DNA of 64,000 nt from a plasmid. The position numbers and the translations under genes are program-made. The stretch is taken from the NCBI RefSeq assembly GCF_058153355.1, contig NZ_JBLWLY010000002.1; one strand, written 5' to 3'. Under the pieces are notes generated by a model. It saw only the letters and a program-made list of their open reading frames with translations, had not been told where the DNA came from and ran no database searches. Positions 35,843 through 36,259 of the stretch are shown in pieces; the stretch's first letter is position 1; each line of letters opens with the position of its first letter.

Positions 35843-36259
35843 GTGACAATGAAAATGAATACTGCGCTGATAGTTGCACTAATGTGTATGTGGTATGCGG
35901 TACCCGCTGCTGCAAAAGAGACTTTACTGGCTATGCCACGTAATTCAACAGAACATTGCTATGCGGAGATTAATGTGCACGGACCATATGGGGTGTATTT
36001 CCGAGTGGTCCCGCATACCCCCGGGGGAAAGAGCTGGGTCGAATGTAACAGTGACTACTATTACTCTGATAAACCACCGGGAGTACAGATACTCGGAACC
36101 CGTGCAGGGTGTCGGGTATACGGAATCTGCGGGACCACCTCGACACTGCATGTGGCTGGAAGAGGGGTTGTGTGTATTAAAAATATATGCAGTCCACGTG
36201 GGATGATAATTCACAGGATACGGAAACGTCCTGTAGTGGCTGTAAGCGATGAGATGTGA
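35843..36259 (+). CDS. Hypothetical secreted cysteine-containing protein (138 aa); stop codon is supplied by the IS3 end, so possibly 3'-truncated
   Basis: N-terminal signal-peptide-like sequence MKMNTALIVALMCMWYAVPAAA; stop TGA at 36257..36259 coincides with the first bases of the IS3 end TGATCTTACCC. Confidence 0.4.
   Translation: MTMKMNTALIVALMCMWYAVPAAAKETLLAMPRNSTEHCYAEINVHGPYGVYFRVVPHTPGGKSWVECNSDYYYSDKPPGVQILGTRAGCRVYGICGTTSTLHVAGRGVVCIKNICSPRGMIIHRIRKRPVVAVSDEM

Follow-up and report, generated by a model that had tools for sequence, protein, structure and literature searches.

Insertion sequences of the IS3 family duplicate 3 bp of their target, and insertions of such elements with a terminus starting with TG can generate the stop codon of a reading frame located upstream. 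A second system with relevance for the locus described here is provided by the Pef/Pix-type clusters of chaperone-usher fimbriae, the distal accessory genes of which encode a FaeA/PapI-type regulator, a DsbA paralogue and a protein that belongs to an uncharacterised family of ~185-208 amino acids and is referred to here as geneX. The DsbA paralogue of the geneX neighbourhood is similar to SrgA, which is encoded by the pef locus of Salmonella. The closest described copies of the gene under study are those present on pINV, the large virulence plasmids found in Shigella flexneri, S. sonnei, S. dysenteriae, S. boydii and enteroinvasive E. coli (EIEC), where it has been annotated as CP0167 on pCP301, AAK18486.1 on pWR501 and EKN05_RS24560 on M90T pWR100 (protein WP_011114759.1), each time as 'hypothetical protein'. 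The gene is hence already public as a hypothetical one, and a signal peptide prediction exists for it as well, with cleavage at residue 23 according to SignalP 4.1 in the Prokka annotation of M90T pWR100 (PMC7132871 supplement).

The stretch of plasmid DNA that was analyzed comprises 64,000 nucleotides (contig NZ_JBLWLY010000002.1 of the NCBI RefSeq assembly GCF_058153355.1) and is called the window throughout the text. The window belongs to a pINV virulence plasmid of Shigella/EIEC. Its region containing the open reading frame (ORF) is 99.5% identical to the pINV plasmids pCP301, pWR501/pWR100, pSS046, pSD1_197 and others, and the ORF itself is 99-100% identical across 116-117 pINV plasmid records. 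The copies of pCP301, pWR501 and M90T represent the same gene with the same IS3 junction, from which the window differs by Thr57 and by a 197-bp upstream deletion. The data presented below add three points to the existing annotation. Decayed relatives of the gene were recovered, IS3 supplies the stop codon but appears not to shorten the protein, and the DNA island carrying the gene can be assigned tentatively to a module of the order geneX-ORF-FaeA/PerC that is associated with chaperone-usher fimbriae. Taken together, we consider it somewhat more probable than its alternatives combined that CP0167 is an orphan gene for an exported protein, which was isolated by an IS630-like element and IS3, has retained a near-native length and persists as a relic in Shigella. 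The features of the region are compiled in Table 1.

Table 1. Features of the CP0167 region and its surroundings, with positions according to the window
Feature	Position	Strand	Evidence or remark
IS630-family remnant, part of the 5' end of the transposase gene	35626..35698	+	blastn, tblastn, PGAP 'IS630 family transposase' pseudogene
geneX 3' remnant (last 44 codons and TGA)	35686..35820	+	tblastn, DNA identity to L010/L011
CP0167 / WP_011114759.1 ORF	35849..36259	+	136 codons and stop; alternative starts GTG 35843, ATG 35855
Predicted Sec signal peptide, 22 aa	35849..35914	+	signal peptidase I site between AAA and KE; SignalP 4.1, hydropathy
C5G5 homopolymer (C6G5 in other pINV)	36018..36027	+	site of 1- or 2-nt deletions
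TGA stop codon, formed by bases 1-3 of the left inverted repeat of IS3	36257..36259	+	IS3 copies elsewhere start matching at 36257
Truncated IS3 left end (inverted repeat and start of orfA)	36257..36475	+	similarity ends at 36473-36475
IS66-family C-terminal element	36506..36652	-	Pfam
Group II intron reverse transcriptase/maturase ORF, interrupting the IS66-family transposase gene	36768..38000	-	
IS66-family main transposase	38462..39943	-	
IS110-family transposase	40702..41721		

The ORF is located on a 557-bp island of non-IS DNA. The earlier note had described an open frame of 138 codons, counted from the GTG codon at position 35843, and this frame was confirmed with the start codon as the sole correction. 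Both Prodigal and RAST selected the ATG at position 35849 (MKMNTAL...), while PGAP selected the ATG at position 35855 of the same open frame, yielding 136 and 134 codons, respectively. The motif ATGAAAAT is kept at the position equivalent to 35849 in a degenerate copy of the gene from Escherichia fergusonii, and one of the two ATG codons is likely to be used rather than the GTG. The window copy specifies Thr57 in place of proline, owing to an A instead of a C at position 36017, and this A was found in no other copy examined.

The deduced protein starts with MKMNTALIVALMCMWYAVPAAA, followed by KE, and shows the characteristics of a substrate of signal peptidase I: the arrangement MK-MNTALIVALMCMWYAVP-AAA with cleavage before KE includes an N-terminal lysine, a hydrophobic core and alanine at positions -3 and -1, and residues 6-18 have an average hydropathy of 2.3 on the Kyte-Doolittle scale. 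A lipoprotein processed by signal peptidase II was considered and rejected, as the lipobox [LVI][ASTVI][GAS]C is absent and the only cysteine of the leader occurs in ALMC with methionine at position -1. Cysteine residues are located at positions 13, 37, 66, 88, 94, 109 and 114 of the 136-aa form, and the mature part of 114 aa, which is basic with a pI of about 9.2, contains six of them and thereby an even number. Both the typical signal peptide and the several cysteines mentioned in the earlier note were thus recovered. AlphaFold2, applied to the single sequence with no alignment, returned an all-beta model with a pLDDT of 48, which is too low for a comparison of folds. The mature protein is probably beta-rich and disulfide-bonded. 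As far as can be deduced from the sequence, the ORF is a genuine gene, albeit an orphan, and specifies a small protein with predicted Sec-dependent export.

By all tests that were run, CP0167 belongs to no described family. A word-indexed search of 5.8 billion protein clusters returned only the ORF protein itself and a frameshift variant of it (P0002), whereas a HMMER search of 1.84 billion protein representatives yielded a fragment of the ORF protein and the fibronectin-III repeat protein P0004, but nothing credible. No family matching the ORF at E<=1 was present in Pfam, no match was detected in NCBIfam and PHROGs, and the best match among the PDB sequences had an E value of 0.21. The suggestion that the gene might encode a toxin subunit consequently found no credible match in any of these collections. 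The match to P0004 was rejected as an artefact, since its E value of 1e-5 is the sum over six near-identical weak repeats, a single repeat scores 24 bits, the alignment takes in residues of the signal peptide and Pfam provides no fn3 match. An assignment to the chaperone-usher fimbrial subunits was likewise discarded, as there is no Pfam match at E<=1 and the C-terminus ...RKRPVVAVSDEM is, by reading, unlike that of a pilin. At the level of species genomes, a peptide-pattern scan of 100,044 genomes detected no relative of the ORF. The DNA pattern of the ORF had one true match in the JGI metagenomes, which represents the same pINV sequence with the IS3 junction, and a search for distant DNA similarity among complete E. 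coli genomes, with the pCP301 region and the contig L010 as queries, detected the ORF in EIEC plasmids only.

The 3' end of the ORF coincides with the left end of an IS3 element. When positions 36150-36480 of the window were used as query, the similarity to thousands of IS3 copies from E. coli genomes started at query base 108, corresponding to position 36257. Since the IS3 similarity starts at the T of the TGA codon, the stop codon of the ORF is composed of bases 1-3 of the IS3 left end, as had been proposed from inspection of the sequence. The left end thereby resembles other stop-making termini of the IS3 family, in that it begins with TGA and ends the upstream frame in the right phase. The orfA gene of IS3 follows downstream of the ORF in the same orientation, and only 219 bp of the element remain, as it is cut at position 36475 by the IS66-family element. 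The junction between the ORF and IS3 was found in 115 of the ~116 PLSDB pINV records as well as in nine divergent pINV lineages and one metagenome contig, and can therefore be attributed to a single ancestral event.

Relatives of the ORF outside of pINV were recovered at the DNA level. A distant DNA search of plasmids provided a single weak match, the E. fergusonii plasmid pRHB18-C04_2 (NZ_CP057682.1), with ~70% DNA similarity extending from the 3' end of geneX across the whole ORF region. This plasmid shows the gene order geneX, an indel-ridden copy of the ORF and a gene for a FaeA/PapI-family regulator; 42 of the 102 alignable codons are identical to those of the ORF (41%), but deletions and a stop codon destroy the signal peptide and several cysteines are lost, so that the copy is a pseudogene. 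The 3' part of geneX also precedes the ORF in the window, where 28 bp separate its stop codon from the start of the ORF. The remnant matches the C-terminus of the E. fergusonii hypothetical protein WP_242460772.1 (203 aa) with 58-60% identity over 43 aa in tblastn, and its DNA is 79-84% identical to that of the Logan contigs L010 and L011. The differences in geneX are distributed as 16/5/19 over the codon positions, which is typical of coding sequence. In L010 and in L011/L012, geneX is followed by 90-160 bp that remain of the 3' end of the ORF, with DNA identities of 79% and 68%, respectively, and then by FaeA and PerC.

The relatives from pRHB18-C04_2, L010 and L011/L012 accordingly share with the ORF its position directly downstream of geneX and a DNA identity of about 70-80%; the E. 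fergusonii copy additionally shares the start motif, and L010 and L011 share the stop position. Unlike the ORF, they are pseudogenes that are marked by indels, by a stop codon in the signal peptide, or by lost 5' codons and a common in-frame TGA, they lack IS3, and they are succeeded by FaeA/PapI and, in L010-L012, also by PerC, whereas pINV is devoid of these genes at this site; FaeA/PerC-like sequences of the relatives were not detected anywhere within the window. The remnants of L010 and L011 are without the 5' 80-100 codons of the ORF, and their common in-frame TGA is located at ~2140 and ~2500, respectively, where the window encodes Arg105/Gly106 (~36161-36166). The ORF was probably already dead in the common ancestor of L010 and L011.

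A protein search with geneX yielded only three more clusters, and its DNA pattern had no match across the contigs of the species genomes. The family has no Pfam, NCBIfam or credible PHROG match, and its C-terminus appears helix-turn-helix-like by eye only; geneX loci are located at L007 2017-2628, L009 4831-5385, L010 1444-2070, L011 1862-2458 and L013 4001-4558. Distant geneX homologues were detected in L008, L009 and L013 and in four E. coli chromosomes. They follow the usher, chaperone and subunit genes of Pef/Pix-like clusters and adjoin genes for FaeA/PapI and the DsbA paralogue. The ORF is missing from these loci, and a 144-aa ORF following geneX in L013 was dismissed as a homologue because it represents IS-related sequence. 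A cysteine-rich exported protein would fit such a neighbourhood, although the ORF itself matches no fimbrial subunit family and the connection is one of gene context, from which we infer an ancestral linkage of the ORF to fimbrial modules.

The IS-free relatives also allowed us to compare the C-termini, with the reading frames counted from the shared CCTGTA anchor that specifies Pro128. In the window, the frame reads PVVAVSDEM and ends with the TGA of IS3. The frame of L010 reads PVMTVTESN and ends with TAA at the same codon, whereas that of L011/L012 reads PVMTRTGR and ends with TAA one codon earlier; in both cases the stop codon is followed by an AT-rich spacer (TAATTAAT...) that contains no IS element. 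The frame of L011 is unbroken from GVIVHRKQEH to the stop codon. The E. fergusonii copy, which is decayed throughout, carries TTG in place of the TAA of the others, and its frame runs on. In every relative, FaeA starts ~100-115 bp past the position of the junction. Given these stop positions in L010 and L011/L012, the simplest interpretation is that IS3 inserted at the native stop codon or immediately beside it, and the replacement of the native C-terminus that had been proposed from the junction was therefore not supported by the comparison. The search for full-length homologues that had been suggested as a check yielded no intact one, but IS-free pseudogene remnants do end at the same codon or one codon earlier, an outcome that comes near to what the note had named as its refutation. 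L010 and L011 count as approximately one independent witness, since they share the in-frame TGA, all three relatives are pseudogenes, and the last seven bases preceding IS3 align poorly with them. With this evidence in mind, CP0167 is quite likely not meaningfully truncated and essentially of full length. The insertion would then differ from other stop-creating IS3-family insertions by coinciding with the native stop codon and leaving the protein unshortened.

With respect to expression, no sigma-70-like promoter was detected on the + strand upstream of the ORF, and a terminator-like hairpin is present upstream at 35654-35672. The transcription start-site table of M90T lists for positions 167485-168504 sites on the minus strand only (167953, 168084, 168187 and 168504), which are equivalent to positions 35734, 35865, 35968 and 36285 of the window; transcription start sites on the strand of the ORF are absent from this map, which covers one growth condition. 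The site at 36285, located 29 nt within the left end of IS3, is directed outward through the ORF. Sequence variation was evaluated in nine divergent pINV lineages, which revealed eight SNP sites in the ORF. Six of these are nonsynonymous and two synonymous, a ratio that is about neutral given the expected nonsynonymous proportion of 0.69-0.77, with the restriction that eight SNPs cannot exclude weak selection in plasmids as young and uniform as pINV. The nonsynonymous sites include a change of the ATG at 35849 to ATA in four pINV lineages. In five PLSDB records from Shigella dysenteriae and S. boydii, deletions of 1 or 2 nt in the C6G5 run shift the frame of the ORF, giving rise to the variant P0002; these frameshifts all originate from one PacBio project and may reflect either real slippage or sequencing errors.

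Several other explanations of the locus have to be weighed against these data. The removal of a substantial native C-terminus by IS3, which would make the present protein a truncated secreted factor, is suggested by the stop codon being IS3 sequence, by the frames equivalent to the ORF that run 9 or 22 codons past the position of the junction in E. fergusonii, and by the last three residues (DEM) that are unlike those of the relatives. Of these observations, the IS terminus abutting an open frame and providing its stop codon is what a 3' truncation predicts, but the IS-free relatives did not point to a native frame extending past the junction, a result of moderate strength as these relatives are pseudogenes. 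The start of FaeA furthermore leaves space for at most ~35 missing codons, and the pseudogene of E. fergusonii is heavily decayed, so that with the stop codons of L010 and L011/L012 and their subsequent spacer a truncation is unlikely. That the ORF is not a gene at all, but an open frame that arose by chance in junk DNA between two IS remnants, would be in line with the lack of protein homologues in the searches, with the differences from E. fergusonii that are spread evenly over the codon positions (32/35/43), and with the low pLDDT of the structural model. Such an even spread is nevertheless expected when the partner is a pseudogene, and shuffling of the 557-bp island produced an ATG-initiated ORF of at least 134 codons in only 42 of 5000 cases (p ~0.008). 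Together with the signal peptide and its AXA site and with a homologous region after geneX in three other replicons, in which the start motif and the stop position are conserved, these data render a chance frame very improbable. The least plausible origin, to which we attach practically no weight, is that of an out-of-frame or degenerate continuation of the upstream IS630-family transposase. The remnant of this transposase is adjacent and co-oriented, and by eye HTPGG looks similar to HSPGD and GCRV to GCQL, but the similarity of DNA and protein to the IS630 family stops at ~35698 in blastn and tblastn, the comparison of the ORF with the ISEc33 transposase by blastp gave a best E value of 2.6, and the region 35686-35820 is homologous to geneX instead. 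These results refute a relation of the ORF to the IS630 transposase, no similarity to such a transposase having been found beyond its N-terminal 54 aa.

A genuine gene of near-native length might still be functional, for instance as a pINV-specific exported protein acting in adhesion, in the envelope or in host interaction, which was kept by Shigella and lost in the relatives. The only intact copy is present in pINV, which could mean retention for function, the frame is open in most of the ~116 records from four Shigella species and EIEC, and the protein combines a good signal peptide with an even number of cysteines in its mature part. On the other hand, there is no sense transcription start site in the M90T map and no promoter-like site, the SNP ratio is neutral, one of the start codons has been lost in certain lineages and the frame is shifted in some of the records. 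Moreover, pINV is so uniform that the intact state carries no information, and the literature searched under the names CP0167 and WP_011114759 contained no mention of the gene. In view of these data, a functional protein is rather improbable, and the more specific variant of a Shigella/EIEC-restricted exported protein that represents the last intact member of a fimbria-module family, is expressed conditionally (e.g. inside host cells) and acts in the envelope or at the interface with the host is distinctly improbable. The truncation of geneX by the IS630-like remnant, the missing sense start site and promoter and the neutral SNPs therefore favour a silent relic, and CP0167 most likely is such a silent and neutrally drifting relic in Shigella, devoid of a function.

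The following history of the locus would be consistent with a relic of near-native length. The ancestral gene order may have been geneX, the ORF and a gene for a FaeA/PapI-type regulator, located beside Pef/Pix-like chaperone-usher clusters on plasmids of Escherichia. Two events in the ancestor of the pINV plasmids of Shigella and EIEC would have isolated a 557-bp fragment of this module: an IS630-like element and a deletion presumably removed most of geneX along with any upstream promoter, and IS3 probably inserted immediately behind codon 136, no more than one codon away from the native stop codon. The terminal TGA of IS3 would now end a protein of essentially native length. With regard to annotation, CP0167 should accordingly be regarded neither as an IS-truncated gene nor as a candidate toxin fragment, but as an essentially full-length orphan coding sequence, the stop codon of which happens to be IS3 sequence. 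The geneX remnant and the ORF can be viewed as what little is left in pINV of a regulatory module associated with fimbriae, which contributes a detail to the mosaic history of this plasmid. Should the gene truly be expressed, it would specify an exported protein specific to Shigella and EIEC, but the present evidence points the other way.

The upstream border of the island differs between the window and the other pINV plasmids. In pCP301, DNA similarity to the IS630 family amounts to 74-81% and ends at ~6073 of L001, corresponding to ~35698 of the window, and the remnant covers residues 1-43 of the ISEc33 transposase according to tblastn. At position 35625/35626, the window is without 197 bp that are present in pCP301 and pWR501 (L001 5804-6000). 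This deletion takes away the first ~197 nt of the IS630 remnant, starting approximately at its left end, which blastn places at L001 5804-5810; none of the pINV records in PLSDB matched across the deletion point in the searches performed. Further upstream, positions 34784-35500 contain a very AT-rich 238-aa ORF (32% G+C) that is predicted to encode a multi-pass membrane protein resembling CP0168 / WP_073708127. This ORF matches neither a Pfam nor an NCBIfam family; it is conserved among the pINV plasmids, where it lies immediately upstream of the IS630 remnant.
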